This document shows positions 27,074-61,860 of a stretch of 64,000 nucleotides of DNA, in pieces. Within the stretch, counting starts at the first letter, position 1. Each line of letters begins with the position of its first letter. Under the pieces are notes generated by a model, which did no database searches, was not told the DNA's origin, and saw only the letters and a list, made by a program, of their open reading frames with translations. The position numbers were made by a program, and so were the translations under genes. The DNA comes from Lophium mytilinum (taxonomy: Eukaryota). Location: the NCBI GenBank assembly GCA_010093605.1, contig MU004189.1, positions 1,743,834-1,807,833 on the forward strand, written 5' to 3'.

Positions 27074-27261
27074 GCACCGCTGTGAGGAGTAGCCCGTCCA
27101 GCAGCCGACCAGTTCGTCAATACGTGACCCAACTTGCATTCCTTCAACCTCGACACCCTCAAGTCAAACCCACATCTCCAAAGCCCACTGATACACTCTG
27201 AATTTCAACTACCCTACCTCGCTATTGCCCCTCTAACGCCGCTGTAAGAAGTAGCCTAGCC
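27074..27261 (+). repeat. two degenerate copies, 162 bp apart, of the 57-60 kb array motif
   Basis: GCACCGCTGTGAGGAGTAGCCC (27074) and ACGCCGCTGTAAGAAGTAGCCTAGCC (27236) resemble array copies ACGCCGCCGTCAGGGGCGCCCTACC (58850) and ATACTGCTGTAAGGGGTGGCCTAGC (59175). Confidence 0.55.
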
Positions 27262-38418: not shown

Positions 38419-40210
38419 GTGAGACTACCCATTACCTCGTCGAGCCCCTCAGACCTCTCAGTAGGGTTTGCGATGAGCAAGCTTCACGCTCGCAATCCCG
38501 CCATAGATTCTATCGAAGGCTTCGACGTCGTTCGAACATGGCTCAAAACATGCACAGACCATCATAAGCTATGCAGCAAGACGATCTCCGGTACCCTAGT
38601 GAACGACGGATTGCCGGGAAATGCCTTGCCCACGAGGATCATCGATGTGGGTGACGATCGAGACACGCCGCCGAAGCTGGTTGCTACCGCGGGCCGGAAG
38701 GGCATCTATCTTGCACTAAGCTACTGCTGGGGAACGACCCAACAGTCGAAGCATCTCAAGACGACGAGGTCGAATCTCTGCGATTTTGAGGGAGCCATAC
38801 CCTTCTCTCTCTTGCCCGCAACTATTAGAGATGCTATAATTGCAACTCGCCTGCTACATATTCGCTACCTTTGGGTTGATACGCTTTGTATTATCCAGGA
38901 CGACGATCTGGATTGGAAGCATGAATCTGCCAACATGGGCAGCATCTTCCAGCTTGGTCTCTGCACCCTGGCAGCAACTTCAGCGCGACATAGCGGTGAA
39001 GGTCTATTTCTACTTCGACAGGCCGATAATGAACACGAGAATCACGGCCTCGTAGAGGAACTTGCACGGTGCGAGTGGAGCAAGAGAGGATGGGTGGTAC
39101 AAGAGCGCATTCTTTCACGTCGACTTGTCCATTTTGGTTCTCAACGGCTCTTCTTCGAATGTCAAGAAGGCGTCGATACCCAATTTGAAAATGGCCCAAC
39201 ACCTTTTACTCATAATCTGCAGTCGAAACCACGGATCTTTCATCGACTCATGCTCGAAGCAACAGTAGTAGCCAGGATGACGAACGGCTCCCATACGTTG
39301 CAGACTCTCAGAGTTGTTGCGGCGCTAGTCAACAACCACTTTCTGTCTAGAAGAAAGCCTGATCCTGATAGAGTCCACAGCGCACAGCACCGCTTCTGGT
39401 CTAGAGTTGTTCGAGCATATAATCAATGCGATCTAACCCAGCCTAGCGATAAGCTTCCTGCTATATCTGGTCTTGCCCGAGAGATGAGTGCTCTAATCCG
39501 CCAGAGCTACTTTAGAGGCTTGTGGATTGAAGACATTGCAAGAGGGCTGTTCTGGTGTGCGTCTCATGATCCATTGACCATCCTAGAAGGCGCTCAAGGT
39601 GCGTATGCTCGTATCTCCCTTGACGTTTAAGGAACATTGCTTAGTAAGACCAGCGCCATCGTGGAGTTGGGCTGCTTGGAAAGGCGAAACCCGGATGGCA
39701 ACCTACTATGCTGAGTACGACACTGGTAGACCCTGGGTATATGAGACCAGTACTGCGAATTGTGGCACTCTTCACCTCGCAGCCCATTTCTGGAAAGCTT
39801 CTAGGCTACCCGGAGGCCATGCAACTGATTTTCTCGACAACTGGATCATGCAAGAGTGGTGGACTAACCCGGGCAAAGAGACAAACGAAATATCAAGAGA
39901 CCTCCCTCGATTTAACCGTTTCATCACTCGAGGAGCAGAGGAGCATGAAATACAGGGAGTGGTTGCCTTTGATAACGAGTCGAGTCAACCACTGGACTTT
40001 ACATGTGTCATCTTGAACACGGTTTCATTAAAGAACTCGACAACAGGAGAAAGTGGATACGGGTATTACCAGCTAATCGTTCACGAATCCCCTGTCGTCC
40101 CTGGAGCGTATGAGCGGGTCGGGGTTGGGATCGCCATATCATTGACCGACTACATATCCCATGGTTGGCTGGGTCGCTCTTCTCCTTCGAATCGCATTAT
40201 TCTTGTGTGA
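38419..40210 (+). CDS. HET-domain (heterokaryon incompatibility) protein; 5' end uncertain
   Basis: HET blocks LPTRIIDVG, YLALSYCWG, YLWVDTLCIIQDD, ESANMGSIF and WSKRGWVVQERILS, then SDKLPAISGLA. After an intron at ~39599-39648 comes APSWSWA, and later YERVG. Confidence 0.9.
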
Positions 40211-52479: not shown

Positions 52480-55151
52480 GTTGATGGTGTACCTCCAGTG
52501 GGAGCTTTCTTTGTGGGTGAGGGGTAGCGGTCAGCTATTAAGTAACTGTGCCTGAGCCGGAAGGCGGCGGAGACACTACAGGGAGAGCTTGCTAGAAAGA
52601 CTAGGAAGCTACGACAAGCTGTCAAATGATGAGTGGTGAATGAAGAGTTAGCAGCGTGGGTGCGGGCAGCCTTTTATTTGGTTGCTGAGCCGCGGGCTGG
52701 AGCTGGGAGTTAGATACCCGGTCTTACGATGTCAATACCTCGTAGACTCGGCGCGATGCGACTCTTGCGAACGAAGGACGCGCTGCTACTGCGGCTTCGC
52801 CGTGGGCCGCAATCAGGTGAGGGCAATGCGCCACGCTGGACAGGGCTCCGGAGGTTAGCAGCACGGTAAAGATGCCTAGGTGGGGTGATGTTGCTGCACG
52901 AGAAGCTCTGGGTGTTTCTCTTTGCTGCAGATGGTCGCGGTCGCGACGCGATCTCCGTTGATTTTTTTGGTGGAATGATATGACCTCATTGTTCTTTGAC
53001 AGCGAGGTACGGCGTACGACATGAGAACCATCCTGCGCTACGCCGCTTTGGAATATCAAAATGCAACAACACTGACAAACACCGACGGATCTAGGGACAA
53101 CTGCCATTCACTACAATAGGCTCACAACCTCAATGGCAGAGAGCTTGAAGAGAGCGTCCTGACCAGCTGAGTATTGCATGGTTTCAACTGCCTTTGGGCG
53201 CCCGGTAGCGTTGAATATACTTTCTTTACCATACACAGCTTCAGAACATCAATCTATCGATTGCAAAAGCACGAAGTTATATCTATTCCAACACCTTTTT
53301 CCAAGTCTACAGCTTCAGTAAAGAGATTATCATTAGGAAAATTCCGTTTGTTGCTATTTTGGTCAGTGTTTCTCCAGTGTGCCGACACCGAAAAGCCCCT
53401 ACCACCCCCACACCACGCCTAGAGTATGCCGTATTGTTTTAATAGCTGCAACCATCATGCCACCTCAGGCCTGTCTTCGCCGCCGCACCTGTGTGGAGCG
53501 CTCCACTCCGCCCGGATGTTAAGATAGCGGCTCGCTCTCTCGAATCAGTTATGCTGTCCTTCTTACCCGACTTCGATGCTACGTACTCCCGCCTACTCTA
53601 CGCGTCTCTTGATCGTCGCGAGGGCTTCAGAATTTTCTTCTCGACCACGCTGCACTGCCGTCAATCGACTTTCACAGACCATGGCCTACAAGCTGTGACG
53701 ACCAAGTCCTAGTGCATCACTGCACATGATGGGGTTACGAGAGGATCAGTCAACCAGAGCTTCCAATTACAAGGATCACGGAGCACTTCCGACTTCCAGA
53801 CCATCGAGATCGCGATTGCGATTGTCGCCCGCCGATTCCAATTTGAGACCGGACCCGTTTTCCATAATTCAGGCTGACTGCAGGCTCGGCTCTGGCTCTT
53901 GGCTCCTGATGTCGCAAACCTAAAGTTTCAGTGATTCACAAGTTGTGGGATCAGTGGAAAAGGCGCAGTCGTGGTCCTTGCCGGGCCGCGTTCCAGGCGG
54001 CATTCGCCATGAACACGAGACCTACGAAATGCATCATGATACTTCCACGTCCGGTAATGCATCCTACAAGCACTCCTTGCCGGTCGGCTCGTAAAAGGGG
54101 CCTCGTCCGACGTGCTCGTTGACGTGTAGACCTCGTCTCTCAAGCTGAGCGCGTTGCGGGCAACGCTCATCTGCAGTTCCATTCTGTCACTTGAACGAAG
54201 AGCTTCGAAGTCGGCGCACTTCAGAGCTCTCACCCATACAAATCGGACACAGTACGGCGCCCATAGAGATGGCTTTATCAAACATCTTCCTAAGTGTCTT
54301 AACTTTACCTAATCAGTCAGCACGGTGGGCGGAGAGAATGGCAAGTGCCGACTCGGCGCGCGTCGTCCCATCCATCGCGGTGTAGACCTCCGCGTTATGA
54401 CAGATTGAGTCTCTCAACAAATCAATCTCTTTAAGAACGCGGTCCTACCATCTGATGTGGCCTGGAGAGCTACTAGGCGGCTTGCCAAAGCTGGCATTTC
54501 ATGAGTAGCAATAGCATATTGGAGGACCTTAACAGTGCTAAATATGCATGGAAGCAGTAGGTAATAACCTAGAGATTTGTGGACTGCTAATTTCTACTTC
54601 CACTCAACTATCCCGCTATTTTGTACCCGGTATGTAGTATGTACACCGGTCTGCCACTGTATGGAGTACTTCAGCAAGTTTCCATATAGCCCAAAACTAT
54701 GAGTTTCAATCCCATTTACTGTTTAAATAATGCACCACAAACAGCGGCGAACAGGTGCATGTATTAAAGGCAGAATGCTTGCTGGGCGTGCCACTTCTTT
54801 CATGCCCTGCGAGGCGGTGAAGGAGCCGCCGCCCCACTTGCCGCCCGACTCATAACATCACCACCAACCTCAGCTGCATCCTCGCCACAACACCAAACTG
54901 TCGCTGTCGCCTTGCCGTGCCGTGCTAACACAATTTTTCGAGCGTTCTAGCAATTCATAGTAGCATTCCTTACTGATCATTCCCAAGCCAGAGTTATCTT
55001 CGACCATGCGCCTGCGCTTGAAACACACAATCGACGATAAATACAGTACGTTTCCCCGTTCAATCCGCGAAATGCCGTCTACTAATCCGACCGACAGCCC
55101 TCGCATAGCACTGCGAGAACTCTCCAAACCGACACGAAGAACAACAACACC

Positions 55152-56804
55152 ATGCCGTCGAGAGCGGAGGAAACCACCTGGGACTTCGGACCCGCTCTGG
55201 CCCTTGTCGATGGAGCGGAATATGGAGATCCAGGCGACGGCGATGAAGAGGAGGAGGCTATCGAAGTTAAGAGGGGGACATTGGGAGACTTTGACAACCT
55301 GTTCGAGCTTCTTGGTGACTCAAGCCTTCCTCCGACAGAGTCGCCACACACGTCCAACGAGGGATATATAACTGCGGTAGAAGACATCGGATTGCCGCAA
55401 TTGTTGACTGATTCAGCTTCGGATCAGTCAGACCTTGAATCGACAGAACTACTAGCCGTCTATACTGAGAGGCTAGCATTTGCTACTAAGAGTTTCGAAG
55501 CCTTTGCAGGGAAGTCGAGCGCCTTTGGGGGCCTCTCAACGCGCGGTCCGATTCAAGAGTCTCCTCAAAAAACCAAGTGGCAGCGAAAGAAAGCTAGACG
55601 GGCGGAACAAAAGGCCCTCTTGAAAGCTAGCGCGGCTACGACCCTACTCGATCCGAAAACGCCAGAGAGCCCCAGGCGCAGGCGACTGCAGGTGGAACCT
55701 CCCCGGACTCCCGTTGCGCCACTCGATTACCTCCCAGTTCCGAAATCTGCGCCTCCGAAGCCCTCTGTTCCCTTATATCCTTCAGCCATTCAAGCCCCCA
55801 AGAAGAAGGCCAATACCCAAGCCCTTATTTCCGATCTCCATGGACACCAGTCGCTTGGATCAACTGGATTGTTGCAAATAGAGCAGCGTCCCCAAGCTAT
55901 CGATTCGTTTCAGCAAGAGACTTCAACACACGTTGACAGACCTGGTCCAATCCTCCATTCTGCCTTCCTTGCAGCACATGGCTTCAAGTTCGGAATCGAT
56001 CGCCACATCCTCCTTGCATCTAAACTTCGAGACCGCTTTTATCAAGATCGGGATTGGCTCGATGCTGCAATGCAGTTCAATGTGCCTAGGGATGGTATCC
56101 ATGTCTTTGTGGATGCTTCGAATATCGTCATTGGCTTCTACAATGAGCTCAAGCGCCTACTCGGCTATCCTAATGGCCTCCGTAACGAGGAAATCCACGT
56201 CGCCTTCGATTGTCTAGCATTATTGATGGAACGACGGCGGCCGGTTTCGAAGCGGGTATTGGTCGGCAGCAAACCAGAACTGCTTGCCTTTGACATCGCT
56301 CGGAAGATCGGCTACGAGACCCACATTCTTGACAAGGTCCTGAAAATCCGAGAACTCACGGAGAAGCAGAAGTACTTCAAGCAGCGCGAGCTCGACACCA
56401 AAACCCGGCGTCGCCCCATTGCATATGGCATCAGCCACGACGGACCCTTCGAAGCATTCGCGGAGCCGAAAGCATCGCAGCTTCCCCAGCAGGAGCAGAA
56501 GTGGGTAGAACAAGGCGTGGACGAGCTCCTGCATCTGAAAATGATGCAGAGCCTGCTCGATGCCTCAGACGAACCCGGCACTATTGTTCTGGCGACCGGA
56601 GATGCTGCTGAGGCGGAGTACTCGGACGGCTTCAAGGAGAACGTTGAACGGGCGCTAAGGAAGGGCTGGAAGGTGGAGTTGTACAGTTGGGCCAAGAATA
56701 TTAGCAACGAGTATCGGAAGCCGTCGTTCACGAAACAGTGGAAGTTCGGCCAATTCCAGATCTTTGAGCTGGATGAGTTCGCACGAGAGCTGCTCGATTG
56801 CTGA
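55152..56804 (+). CDS. NYN/PIN-like (LabA-type) putative ribonuclease with long low-complexity N-terminus
   Basis: C-terminal domain has the acidic catalytic pattern IHVFVDASNI...EQGVDELL...IVLATGDAAEAEYSDGF...ALRKGWKVELYSW typical of NYN/PIN_LabA proteins. Intronless 550-aa ORF. Confidence 0.82.
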   Translation: MPSRAEETTWDFGPALALVDGAEYGDPGDGDEEEEAIEVKRGTLGDFDNLFELLGDSSLPPTESPHTSNEGYITAVEDIGLPQLLTDSASDQSDLESTELLAVYTERLAFATKSFEAFAGKSSAFGGLSTRGPIQESPQKTKWQRKKARRAEQKALLKASAATTLLDPKTPESPRRRRLQVEPPRTPVAPLDYLPVPKSAPPKPSVPLYPSAIQAPKKKANTQALISDLHGHQSLGSTGLLQIEQRPQAIDSFQQETSTHVDRPGPILHSAFLAAHGFKFGIDRHILLASKLRDRFYQDRDWLDAAMQFNVPRDGIHVFVDASNIVIGFYNELKRLLGYPNGLRNEEIHVAFDCLALLMERRRPVSKRVLVGSKPELLAFDIARKIGYETHILDKVLKIRELTEKQKYFKQRELDTKTRRRPIAYGISHDGPFEAFAEPKASQLPQQEQKWVEQGVDELLHLKMMQSLLDASDEPGTIVLATGDAAEAEYSDGFKENVERALRKGWKVELYSWAKNISNEYRKPSFTKQWKFGQFQIFELDEFARELLDC

Positions 56805-56813
56805 GTGGGGGTG

Positions 56814-56972
56814 TGGGCGGAGGTACGGTGCGTGGTTGCTTATGTAGCTTTTAGAGGCCGAAAGGTCTCTGGATAGCGTAGCTACCTTGGATTGGGCGGA
56901 GGTACTGTGCGTGGTTGCTTATGTAGCTTTTAGAGGCCGAAAGGTCTTTGGATAAGCATAGCTAGCTTGGAT
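56814..56972 (+). repeat. 79-bp tandem duplication, each copy with a GAAA-tetraloop hairpin
   Basis: Copies start at 56814 and 56893. Hairpins TTTAGAGGCC-GAAA-GGTCT(C/T)TGGA at 56850-56873 and 56929-56952. Confidence 0.9.
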
Positions 56973-57056: not shown

Positions 57057-60010
57057 GATGACCTCCATATACCGCCGTTTGGGGTACCCCAGCGAATTAA
57101 CTGACTGGTCAAAAAGATGATATTCTGTCTCGTTTGGAGGCACGAAAGTATGTTGAGGTGCTTCAGACGGCGGTGAAGATTGTACCTATTGTGGTCTCGA
57201 GCGATGTAATATGGCTGGTGCTGCATATAGCACTTGCGAGAGGTCAATTTCTGGCCTTAAGAGCCTTGTGATGACCTCCAGATACCGCCGTCTGAGGTGG
57301 CTCAACGGGTTTACTGACTGGTGACAAATATGGTTTTCTAGTGGGCGAAAGTATGTCAAGGCGCTTCAGACGGCGTTGAAGAGGTGTAGCTATTGCGTAT
57401 TACGAGGTGTTAATTTTGCGTGTTACGGTCTTATATAGCCAAAGCGTCATAGCATAGCCTATAAAACTCTAGAAACCTTCAATCAAGTTAGAGTTTTGCT
57501 TCGTAATGACGTCCATATACCACCGTTTGAGGTGCCCTGGCGAGTTGAATGGCTGGTGAGAAAGGTGGTTTTCTAGTGCGCGAAAGTATGTTAATCCGCT
57601 TCAGACGGCGGCGAAGAGGTGTAGCAATGCGTGTTACGATATTACAGTTTTGTATAGAGAAACTATCACAGCACTTCAATTGAACACAATATTTGCCCGG
57701 TGGTGACCTCCAGAGACCGCCGTCTAAGGTACCCCAGTAAGCGGGTTGCCGGCCAGCTAAAAGGTAGTCTAATATCTACTGCATAAAAAAAGGCATAGAT
57801 GGACAAATGTCTAGCCGCTTTGGCTTTATTCTTGCTTAATTGATACCACCGTAAGAGGTACCCCAATAAGTAGGTTGTCGGTTAGCTAAAAGGTAATCTA
57901 ATATCAACTGCATGGAACTCAGGATAAGAGGACGAACATCCAGCTGCTTCGGCTTTATTCTTGCTTAATTGATACCACCGTCAGAGGTGGCTTAGTGAGT
58001 TACTAGTTTTTTGAAGACATGGGTTTCTATCCCGTTTAGAGGTGCGAAAGTACGTTGAGGCTCGTCAGACCGTAGTGAAGAGGTGGAACTATGACCCGTA
58101 CGGCACGATGAAATACACACTCTGATCAAACTTCTACCTTTTAATGCCTTATCATTATCGCAGACACCGCCATCTAAGGGGCCCTAGCGAGTTTACTAAC
58201 TGTTCAAGAAGATAGCTTTCTATCCTACTTGGATGCGTGAAAATAGATCAGGGCACCTCAGACGGCGTTCAAGAGGTGTAGAGAGCTAACGCGTATCCTG
58301 TAACATTTGAAACCTTACAGATCTACTGAAGTATGTTGGTTATATTTCTTCTTTATTGTACTCCTGTAGTCCCTCTCAATGACCGCACATACCGCCGTCT
58401 GAGGTGCCCTAGCTCGTTTTAACGGTGAGCATGCAACTGCCTTCGGGCGAAAATCCATCGACGTTGTCCGAGTCGTTGACGAAGAGGATATGGCAGAGCC
58501 GACCATCTACAGGTTCGTCCTCGGCAAAGCTGCACCGCCACCACCGCCGCCAAGAAGCAAGCTGTCCGTGGCAAAGAGAAGAAGATAAGAAAGATGATCC
58601 CTCGCCCGTGTGGTGGACGACGGCTCGGTATTGAAACATAAATACTGAGCTTCGAGGAATAAGCCCGTTTGCGAATGTGGAGCTACTTATCTACTCCCGT
58701 TAATCGCAGGGGTTCGGCGGAGTCTTCCTCAAAAAAATGTTGTTCTATCACGTTTGGATTTGTGAAAGTAGATTGAGGTATCTTAGATGGTGGTAGACTA
58801 GGGATTACACGCTGTCGCGCGACCCTATAGCTTCGGCATTGCCTGTTTGACGCCGCCGTCAGGGGCGCCCTACCTATTAGTACTTTAGCTTGTCAAAAAA
58901 TAGCCGAATATCCACCTCATTAATACCTACATGCTTCGGGGAGGTGGTTATTACATTCATAGGCCTAGGGACAAGATATTACCCTAATTTAGCTTCAGTC
59001 TTGCTTATTCGACGCCACCGTTAGGAGCGCCTTAGCTAGTAGGTTTCTAGATATTCAAGGGATAGCTCGATCTTCACGTTATTAGCACGTACATGACTAA
59101 AGGAGGTGATTATCATGTCCCTAGGCATACGGGGGGGACATTACCCTGCCTTTACCTTTAGTCTTGCTTCTTCGATACTGCTGTAAGGGGTGGCCTAGCT
59201 AGTTAGTTCCTAACTAGTCAGGTAACAGTATAATAACCACTGCTAGACCATATACATGCTTTGAGGAGGCGAGTGTTACAACTCTAGACATACGCATGGG
59301 ATATTGCCCTGATTTAGCTTTGTTTGCTAGAACTACATCGCTGTGTTCTGCGTTAGAGGTATCTTAAAGGGCAGGTCCTTGGACTCTGATATTGGAACTC
59401 TGACAATCGGTTTGAGGGCAAGAGGATAGCGCCGTTTGGGGTGGCTCAGCCAGCACAATGATAATACCTTACCGTCTTTTGGCACCTACGAAAGCGTATT
59501 TAGGCGCTTCAGACGGTGATAGAGTGGTGTACACAAGGCCAGCAAGGAGAGTTTTTACTGTGAATTTACCTTGCGAGTTGAAGTGCAATGCCTCATTCTA
59601 GAGCTTTGATACAGCATTAACGATCTAACAACCTCGCCGCATAGACTTACGAGCACCGACAGTGCCGTCTGAGGTGCTTCAGCGAGATTATGGTCTATTC
59701 AGAATAACGGACGTTTGACCTTTTGATGATTTCCGAAATGGCATTGTGGGACTTCAGACCGGGTCAGGCGTGTTTACATAAACCTAGTGACGAGACATAA
59801 TACTATGAATCTACCGCTATGATGTGAAGTGCAATGTCTCACTCCAGGTCTTCGGATCGGGCAAGGCTCCGAGTTTGACGAGTGGATCTACGTACACAAA
59901 AACAGCGCCGTCTCAGTGCTTCGACGAATTTGCTCCAGGTTACAGATCATGAGATTCCTTTTCTAAATGAATCTGTGAGAGTGTCCTGAGGTACTTGGGA
60001 CGACAATAGA
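57057..60010. repeat. degenerate tandem array of a ~22-bp motif, mostly as inverted pairs spanning ~94 or ~104 bp
   Basis: Forward motif (ATACCGCCGTCTGAGGTGCCCT-like) at 57069, 57282, 57517, 57714, 57843, 57972, 58164, 58389, 58850, 59012, 59175, 59426, 59659 and 59902. Inverted motif (GAGGTGCTTCAGACGGCGGT-like) ending at 57174, 57377, 57612, 58076, 58269, 58794, 59520, 59765 and 60007. Confidence 0.88.
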
Positions 60011-61860
60011 AAAGTGTATACCTACAAATCTTCTACAGTGTACATAAATAAGGCCCCCGACCAATTACTATTAAAACCCACTACTCCCCCAACCAAGGCC
60101 AGACCTACCGTTTATTAATAAAATTTTCGCCCATCCCCATCCCGCGATGTTCATCCGAAGTTTCACCCTGCCAACGGGGGAGGTACAGACCAAATACAAA
60201 TCCTTCAAACTTTCCACAGCGGGAGGGAGGTTGGGCGCTGGTTGCCCTGCCAGGCCAGCCCTACCATGTGGCGTCATCCAGGGGCAGTCGGAGGCGAGGT
60301 TGCTCAAACCACCGCCAGCCCCGTGTGCTGGGAGAGTTCGGTACGGCGCGAGGTGAAACGCGAAAACGGCAGAACGGGGTGCTGGGATGCCTGTTCGTGT
60401 TCGCGTTGGAGATGTGGCGCGGCTGTTGGTTGATGCGCAGACTGCAACTGCGCCTTGGGGGGTTGCGTGTGGTGTCCGAGGCTGAAACAGGCAAGGCAGA
60501 GTTGGGGATTCTACATGAGTTCAGGACGGGCGGGAGCTGAAGTGAGTTGAATTGGAGGAATTTTCTTCCTGGCGCGAGTCTGGTCTGGGGAGGCTGGTGG
60601 AGTTGGGATTAGTAAAATTGCAGTCGGAGGGTCCACGGGCAGCGGCTTCGGCGATTGCTAGGCTCCGGGCATGCAGGCGGCCTCGGGAGGATTGATCAGC
60701 GAGGTGCCGCCTTTGCATGCCATGGCGATTGTGGATTTCTGTATTGTTATCTCGTTCAGGCGATGGGGCGTGAAGGCGGCGCGGGGTTGTCGCCAGAGAC
60801 GGGTCTGGGAGGGTGTGGGAGGCGCGGGGACAAGGCGAGGTGTCCTGCAGGAAAACGGGTTTCAGCACAGTCGGAGATGCTGTGCAGCTGTCACGTTTTC
60901 TGCGAGCCAGTGCGCGCCGTTGTGGCAGCGGCAAGGCTGCATCTTGGGTCAGGGTGCCAGCGGCGTTTGCTTGGTGGTGAAAAACTGGAGAGCGTCCATG
61001 ACTGCACACTTTGTAGTTTTTGCGCGCTACCATATGTGGGCTGACATCATGGACAAGACTAAGCACTATGCAGCAGCGAAATGAGGCCGTGGAGCGCGAG
61101 GACAAGAAAAGGCGAGGCACATTTATAGACGACATTTATAGAAGAGGGCGGCTCCATGATGCTGACGGCGGGGTGTTGGAGATGGACTGCTGGATGGCCA
61201 GACACCGGCCCATGTCGCTCGGCGGTGCACACCTATCGCAGGCGGAGCTTGTGAAGATGCAGAAGACGGCATGCCGTTCAGGCATCACGCGACCTGGTGC
61301 TTCTCGTTATCATCATCATGGCACCATGGCGTTGTCGTTGCGCACACTGCGGCTCTGGGATAATCGAGTCCATCACGCCTGCCCGACCACCGCTTGACCC
61401 GCCGTGCAACATGGAGCGTGGAGCTTCCAGGGCCTCCTTTCCACAGTTGGTGCGTCTGTCAGCTTGCAGTCGAGCATCATCTCGCATTTCGGGGCGCAAA
61501 CGAGATTTGCGGCGCGCTGATTCGACGGGCGCGGGCCACAAGCGTGGCACCAGCAAGGCTGCTCTCGGGCTGGCTCTCGGGCCCGGGCTTGGTAAATTGC
61601 ACGCCTCAGCCATCCGACCCTCCCGGCCCAGCAGACACCCAGCTTCATAATCCGCCGCTGTCCGCCGCCCACGCTGCTTCAACTTCTCACGATCCCCAGA
61701 CGAGCTGGCCCCAGACTGTCTCCGCCCTCAGCCGACTTCCAGAAGCCCAGCAGACTCGCGGTTGCCGCCCAGAGCCGATCCCGCGCCGCTCTCCTCCGCC
61801 GCCCATTGTTCAGACCGTCCCCGGATCACTTTTCGCTGAGGAGCTTGGGAGTCGCCTGCG

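Follow-up and report, generated by a model that had tools for sequence, protein, structure and literature searches.

A helically phased box array in Lophium mytilinum as a probable relic of an old MITE-type transposon family

The run of hairpin-capable units at positions 57057 to 60010 of our window (the whole 64,000-nucleotide stretch of Lophium mytilinum contig MU004189.1 that was analysed) is probably the relic cluster of an old non-autonomous MITE-type DNA transposon family, the boxes of which were synapsed in helical phase. Modules bearing the box are dispersed through the genome, their ends have a definite position, their lengths are quantised, and their spacings are phased; the array is built as a mosaic, one of its multi-unit blocks is matched on another contig (C17), and modules have been captured by a second, carrier element. 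We infer simultaneous binding of two boxes by a transposase or helper protein. As a MITE-derived satellite the array is ordinary; its helical ladder is unusual.

The array in the window and its mosaic build

A weight matrix of the box, trained on 92 sites that all came from loci outside the window array, identified 13 forward copies from 57074 to 59664, with a 14th, decayed box at 59907; at a score of at least 10, the matrix gave zero matches in 50 kb of shuffled window on both strands. Successive boxes are spaced by 213, 235, 197, 129, 129, 192, 225, 461, 162, 163, 251, 233, and 243 bp, in keeping with the first-pass annotation, which had counted about 14 motif copies at intervals of 129 to 251 bp and 461 bp across one interrupted unit. 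Its report of nine copies with a downstream inverted partner was likewise confirmed, with arm spans of 98, 88, 88, 97, 98, 398, 87, 99, and 98 bp (398 being 98 plus the 300-base insertion of unit 8), and its arm coordinates for unit 1, with four of the five mismatches G-U compatible, are correct on the sequence. The partner arm is absent from the other five of the 14 units, which represent a separate unit type. No open reading frame of at least 150 amino acids lies within the array, in agreement with the earlier view that it contains no convincing gene, and the window gave no match to Rfam at the gathering score. Two more lone boxes in the window, at 27241 and 45391, are intergenic. Elsewhere in the window, positions 38419-39630 hold a HET-domain (heterokaryon incompatibility) gene (Pfam PF06985).

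The window array is composed of several subfamilies in mosaic fashion. It had been noted that the arms stay recognisable while the linkers diverge strongly; the first half of this holds, since arrays keep the box over the linker, whereas the linkers prove to be three or four subfamilies, each with members on other contigs too. The hairpin units 1-3 have flanks in common among themselves and with one single copy elsewhere on their contig; the closest dispersed single copy found for unit 2 is on this contig (L007, 73%). Units 4-5 are a form of the 163-bp type with a deletion of roughly 34 bp; they are nested within a hairpin unit, the box marking the joint on either side, and a single copy of their type is present on contig C3 (L005). 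Unit 12 carries a 10-11-bp deletion at another place than the deletion of units 2-3. Units 9-11 each have a counterpart at the matching position of an array on C17 (74, 68, and 65%), with tree support of at least 0.8 for two of the three pairings in a tree that is nearly star-like, indicating that several units were copied together from one contig to another at an early date. In the insertion of unit 8, which reads like a gene fragment, 97 bases (58615-58711) match the 3' terminus of a C3 open frame (L004:1501-1597) with 88% identity; that frame in turn has a single hairpin module about 230 bp away.

Table 1. Array units and upstream features, in window positions
Feature	Position	Strand	Description
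Decayed carrier copy	54321..54813		Two modules, same box family; upstream of neighbouring gene, outside array
Neighbour gene	55152..56804	+	Single-copy; relatives named NYN domain-containing protein by UniRef
Unit 1	57062..57183	+	Inverted-repeat module of 122 bp with decayed left end; arm span 98
Unit 2	57275..57386	+	112-bp module, span 88; right end GTG|TA
Unit 3	57510..57621	+	112-bp module, span 88; sister of unit 2, flanks in common
Units 4-5	57711..57968	+	Two 129-bp single-box units, no partner arm
Unit 6	57969..58085	+	5' flank of single-box type, fused at box to hairpin-type body, span 97
Unit 7	58157..58278	+	122-bp module, span 98; right end GTG|TA
Unit 8	58382..58803	+	122-bp module, split by an insertion of 300 bases (about 58421-58735)
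Units 9-11	58847..59330	+	Three 162-163-bp single-box units
Unit 12	59419..59529	+	Module, span 87
Unit 13	59652..59774	+	Decayed module, span 99
Unit 14	59895..60016	+	122-bp module, both ends readable, TA|CAC...GTG|TA

The gene upstream of the array has 754 relatives, mostly in Dothideomycetes and several of them named NYN domain-containing protein, of which the best is from Mytilinidion resinicola (66%); it gave no significant Pfam or PDB match. A functional pairing of the array with this NYN-named gene, as in toxin-antitoxin or CRISPR-like systems, was considered and dropped because the gene is single-copy and widespread and other arrays adjoin unrelated genes. Directly past its stop codon is a young 79-bp tandem duplication (56814-56972, 93-97% identical) that contains no box. 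A GT..AG intron at 55046-55097, upstream of the open reading frame, falls within an RNA contig running from 53822 to 56843 that also spans the carrier copy.

Dispersed modules, the carrier element, and the search for an enzyme

Across the host genome (43.4 Mb, 49 contigs), a 17-letter box pattern with one mismatch allowed gave 228 matches versus 5 in the control. Box counts were taken from 150 partly overlapping loci, picked around box matches, plus the window; this sample contains 509 distinct boxes, some of which stand alone while others form inverted pairs or arrays with up to 16 members. Convergent box pairs span 87-88 or 97-99 bp in 109 of 129 cases (84 and 25, respectively), counts that are inflated by kinship between copies, those for span 88 in particular. 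In the 79 free hairpins that are not tied to a carrier, arm complementarity stops 14 bases outside the box; at that position TA is found in 42% of arms, compared with 1-10% at 15 other positions, and CAC follows it in 25%. The basic unit is a 112- or 122-bp TA|CAC...GTG|TA module with a box of roughly 20 bp (core CCRYCGTYWGAGGTGGC) 12 bp inside each end, the box itself consisting of two 6-bp inverted arms around a 6-bp spacer that varies between neighbouring boxes. Short and non-coding, with arms complementary out to position -14, present in many dispersed copies, and largely confined to two size classes, the hairpin unit appears from its sequence to be built like a TA-flanked MITE that has decayed. 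For module insertion at TA, no empty site was found.

The arrays run as mosaics with a single orientation, and the genes beside them (called with an in-house dicodon model) are unrelated from one array to the next. Among the eight unidirectional arrays with genes called on both sides, six lie between convergent genes; an apparent rule that arrays follow the sense of the upstream gene (9/10) is confounded by this placement and was discarded. One 108-bp box array (L090:4467-5503) has two nearly identical young units, which shows that arrays still expand, and the gene about 600 bp ahead of it reads, by its motif, like an Argonaute. The 108- and 164-bp units of six loci (L090, L091, L094, L103, L119, and L135) have a second motif in common, approximately GATGTCAAA, at a fixed distance some 42-50 bp past the box. 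Box-pattern scans of metagenome and viral contigs gave no match, and look-alikes were absent from the other genomes examined, in a search that did not extend to fungal genomes at large.

Some modules reside in a carrier element with a 26-bp terminal repeat (CAC...GTG) that has 221 genome matches versus 0 in the control. Thirty-nine complete copies, 92-466 bp long, were recovered, and a 5-bp target duplication is exact in 19 of them and has one mismatch in 10 more, while an exact duplication of 2, 3, 4, 6, or 7 bp occurs in none of the 39. The exact duplications are GC-rich (62 of 95 letters are G or C). The first-pass annotation had offered a decayed MITE-derived satellite as one option and had named many dispersed copies with target-site duplications as the mark of an ordinary MITE or satellite; the dispersed copies (228 matches versus 5), the TA ends, and the carrier duplications (19/39 exact) bear this option out. 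The duplications have decayed only about 12% in pairwise comparison among the 34 of 39 copies that retain at least three matches, which is below the divergence of the linkers, so most divergence would predate insertion, and constraint possibly acted on mobile master copies. Carriers contain 0, 1, or 2 modules at varying offsets, and only 117 of the 509 boxes lie within 450 bp of carrier ends, which ruled out a fixed subterminal role of the box in this element. In 25 carrier copies of about 400 bp, module 1 measures 88 bp in 23 and has 2 indels per 287 substitutions, whereas the linker after it has 97 indels per 589 substitutions and 15 lengths; these indel counts tally shared events repeatedly. 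Module 2 measures 98 bp in 13 of the 25, 97 bp in 4, and exactly 88 bp in 5, its commonest change being an exact 10-bp deletion (5/25).

An autonomous element with these ends was not found. Profile searches for RAG1 (PF12940), Helitron (PF14214), Transposase_21, and Crypton DUF3504 gave no match, and their controls were also silent. Transposase matches of other kinds are present and mostly stop-riddled: 16 Plavaka, 14 DDE_3, 10 DDE_1, 3 hAT, and 21 MULE. In a survey of about 1.5 kb on each side, which took in 12 Plavaka loci, 12 wider stretches, and all DDE_3, DDE_1, and hAT loci, the box was absent at the ends of 12 of the 16 Plavaka, 14 of 14 DDE_3, 10 of 10 DDE_1, and 3 of 3 hAT matches; one box near a transposase locus (L183) is part of a neighbouring carrier copy. 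Among the 43 best-kept ends there was no convergent box pair 1-5 kb apart. Two 1.3-kb Tc1-like elements (L173:723-2017 and L184:737-2016) have perfect 41-52-bp inverted repeats starting TACAC and lie in GC-rich DNA, where RIP has hardly touched them; TACAC is all that these mini copies have in common with the module ends. The Plavaka matches include at least 16 stop-riddled copies (L160-L171) in a Dothideomycete; one published account reports Plavaka from Agaricomycotina. FoHeli-type Helitrons are described, in the account drawn on, as having 5'-TC and 3'-CTRR ends, or asymmetric inverted repeats, and no duplication (PMC5148889), and a Helitron or Helentron origin was rejected since the module ends are symmetric with TA on both sides.

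Helical phasing and the explanations weighed

Same-direction box spacings of up to 260 bp (192 units, 50 sequence families, and 78 family-by-length classes) have a best period of 10.55 bp with R 0.50, a value reached by 0 of 5000 jittered control sets. When true tandem periods are each counted once (n = 23), the period is 10.65 bp (R 0.62, p 0.004), and p rises to 0.049 once these periods are pooled into 14 classes. The window array alone is not significantly phased (p 0.24), with 9 of 11 spacings within 2.3 bp of the ladder when 461 is omitted and 129 counted once. Periods from 65 to 225 bp share one ladder, and deletions of about 10, 12, and 34 bp are found at different places in different units. 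Box conservation exceeds that of the linker in 12 of 12 arrays (0.67-0.88 versus 0.51-0.71), a difference inflated by the choice of boxes with the matrix, and fixed-length unit alignments have no gap in 6 of 12 arrays at linker identities of 51-71%. Ts/Tv in the arrays is 0.9-1.9; RIP alone therefore does not explain the indel-poor divergence. An array of protein-binding sites had been another option of the earlier annotation, and both the conservation in 12 of 12 arrays and the helical phasing suggest that the box behaves like such a site. This option and the MITE-derived one go together rather than compete.

Under a transposon-relic explanation, a transposase-type protein would synapse two boxes lying on the same side of the helix. 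The DNA between them is so short, near or below its bending length, that no other register would work, and the variants that propagated would differ in length by about one turn or three (10-12 or 34 bp). Arrays would grow by duplication and exchange at the box, and multi-unit blocks would be copied between chromosomes. The simplest candidate for this protein is the transposase of the element itself, or a helper, at work on mobile master copies; the elements now look decayed. The weak step is that end synapsis by itself leaves phased single-box direct repeats unexplained, which gives some room to a host binder, an unlikely candidate, and very little to a cassette mechanism.

It was also proposed that the array encodes a polycistronic hairpin or microRNA-like RNA precursor, a reading that is now hardly credible. 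Units 1, 2, and 14 do fold on the + strand (z -5.0, -4.8, and -3.4), and among nine related pairs + strand mismatches are of the G-U type more often than A-C (42 versus 24). However, these three are the only units of the 14 with z at or below -3 on that strand, unit 7 folds on the - strand instead, and five units have no second arm. The covariation test that had been suggested gave no compensatory signal: for eight window units and one dispersed copy, the RNAalifold covariation term was -0.09 kcal/mol, with a double change of any kind in 5 of 15 pairs. A larger count of G-U against A-C mismatches (431 to 432 in 114 hairpins) was set aside as uninformative because hairpin strand is arbitrary. 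Hundreds of dispersed copies and the silence of Rfam are further points against a precursor, as is the 10.5-bp ladder, which is a signature of double-stranded DNA. Nor was a known ribozyme found per monomer, as in retrozymes, at the Rfam gathering score, and a hammerhead or snoRNA reading gave no fit by eye. Contigs of the RNA run show spliced introns and cross unit 14 and the carrier copy without a gap; their depth of 0-1.4 over 57213-59618, versus 130-980 on either side, reflects contig cover and is not evidence. One RNA contig (59773-60905, depth 131) spans unit 14 and a GC-rich stretch with no clear gene. As a caution, G-U-looking hairpin arrays in fungi can be DNA-level relics.

Three DNA-level alternatives were also weighed. 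The array may be a neutral MITE-derived minisatellite, its lengths merely inherited and its period arising from a few ancestral lengths; conversion of MITEs to satellites is well described in the review consulted (PMC12628747), the strictest phasing test is borderline (p 0.049), and the placement of most unidirectional arrays between convergent genes (6/8) is as expected of tolerated junk. We consider this improbable given that deletions of about 10, 12, and 34 bp arose independently and not at one place, that 23 of 25 carrier copies keep the module length beside a linker of 15 lengths, and that a single ladder accommodates periods of 65 to 225 bp. Binding arrays kept by the host, with the box now bound by a host or domesticated protein and selection maintaining phase for chromatin or looping, would account for the phasing of single-box direct arrays that have no pair of ends for transposition, for the conservation of the box over the linker (12/12 arrays) without gaps in 6 of 12, and for C17 units that still measure 161-163 bp in a block about 30% diverged. 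This reading is more probable than neutrality but still unlikely. Against it, neighbouring genes are unrelated between arrays, strong pairing is limited to 3 of the 14 window units, matrix-picked boxes inflate conservation, and the slight decay of the carrier duplications places most divergence before insertion. Very improbable is a cassette system of the integron or dif type, in which recombination at the box would release units as small circles that then integrate at other boxes. The two 129-bp units nested in a hairpin unit with joints at the box, the single orientation of the mosaics, and a phasing suited to loop-out of short circles would fit, although unequal crossing-over at the box yields identical joints, the 163-bp units travelled together in order rather than singly, and the Crypton DUF3504 search was without a match (as was its control). 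Furthermore, the 6-bp spacer differs between neighbouring boxes, and site-specific recombinases tolerate spacer differences badly.

Relation to known systems

The nearest parallel for the ladder is in ciliates. Paramecium IESs are described as TA-bounded, Tc1/mariner-derived, and of lengths on a 10-bp ladder (PMC3464196), and a helical-repeat length ladder has been argued likewise for Blepharisma (PMC9942856); in both accounts the argument is that a protein must hold both ends. The spans and spacings of the fungal boxes show a similar periodicity of about 10 bp, and in both cases short TA-bounded transposon relics follow the helical repeat. The array differs from IESs in that its copies lie outside coding sequence, its direct repeats are phased too, and it shows no sign of programmed excision, the RNA contigs being gapless over unit 14 and the carrier. 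In the literature found, the helical ladder has been described mainly for ciliate IESs; our search returned ciliate work, two unrelated papers, and no report of phased MITEs or MITE arrays, and among the matches listed for MITEs in this fungal group no title was relevant.

The carrier resembles the non-autonomous elements of the Transib/CMCT clade, as these are described (PMC1131882, PMC12730594), in its CAC...GTG termini and GC-rich 5-bp target duplications. Unlike the published Transib terminal repeat, with its heptamer, 23-bp spacer, and A-rich nonamer (PMC1131882), the carrier has an A-run at 14-19 of its 26-bp repeat. The window array itself has no termini of this kind. ESTA elements are reported to have CA..TG ends and a TA duplication (PMC12730594), which fit the module ends by description.

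Routes from MITE to satellite have been reviewed, with the Xstir and miDNA4 tandem repeats of Xenopus among the cases covered (PMC12628747). By these accounts, MITEs of the Tc1/mariner type (Stowaway-like) and the Xenopus repeats are, like the modules, short and non-coding elements of high copy number with inverted ends and TA flanks, and they likewise have single copies beside tandem and composite arrays. The fungal family differs in having a 10.5-bp ladder of lengths and array periods and a box common to many unrelated-looking unit families, and no parent transposase was identified for it. It offers a path by which MITE ends can become satellites, in a genome whose long transposon copies, where examined, are wrecked by RIP. 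The ladder amounts to a natural helical-twist experiment in a fungal genome and yields a testable prediction on the geometry of the protein that spread the repeats or still binds them.

The bacterial REP, REPIN, and BIME elements are also built on a short palindromic box, which may stand alone, form inverted doublets with a fixed spacing, or be tandemly arrayed, in each case outside genes. The fungal family differs from them in its eukaryotic host, its TA and 5-bp duplications, and in that no HUH/RAYT enzyme has been shown for it. We see a modest chance that box spacing is still held to the helical repeat by a living protein, either a domesticated transposase or a chromatin factor. If so, the family would be to eukaryotes what REP/REPIN repeats are to bacteria, or an equivalent of the phased IES geometry of ciliates, and its hundreds to thousands of boxes would serve DNA looping or box-directed rearrangement rather than form a graveyard of dead MITEs.
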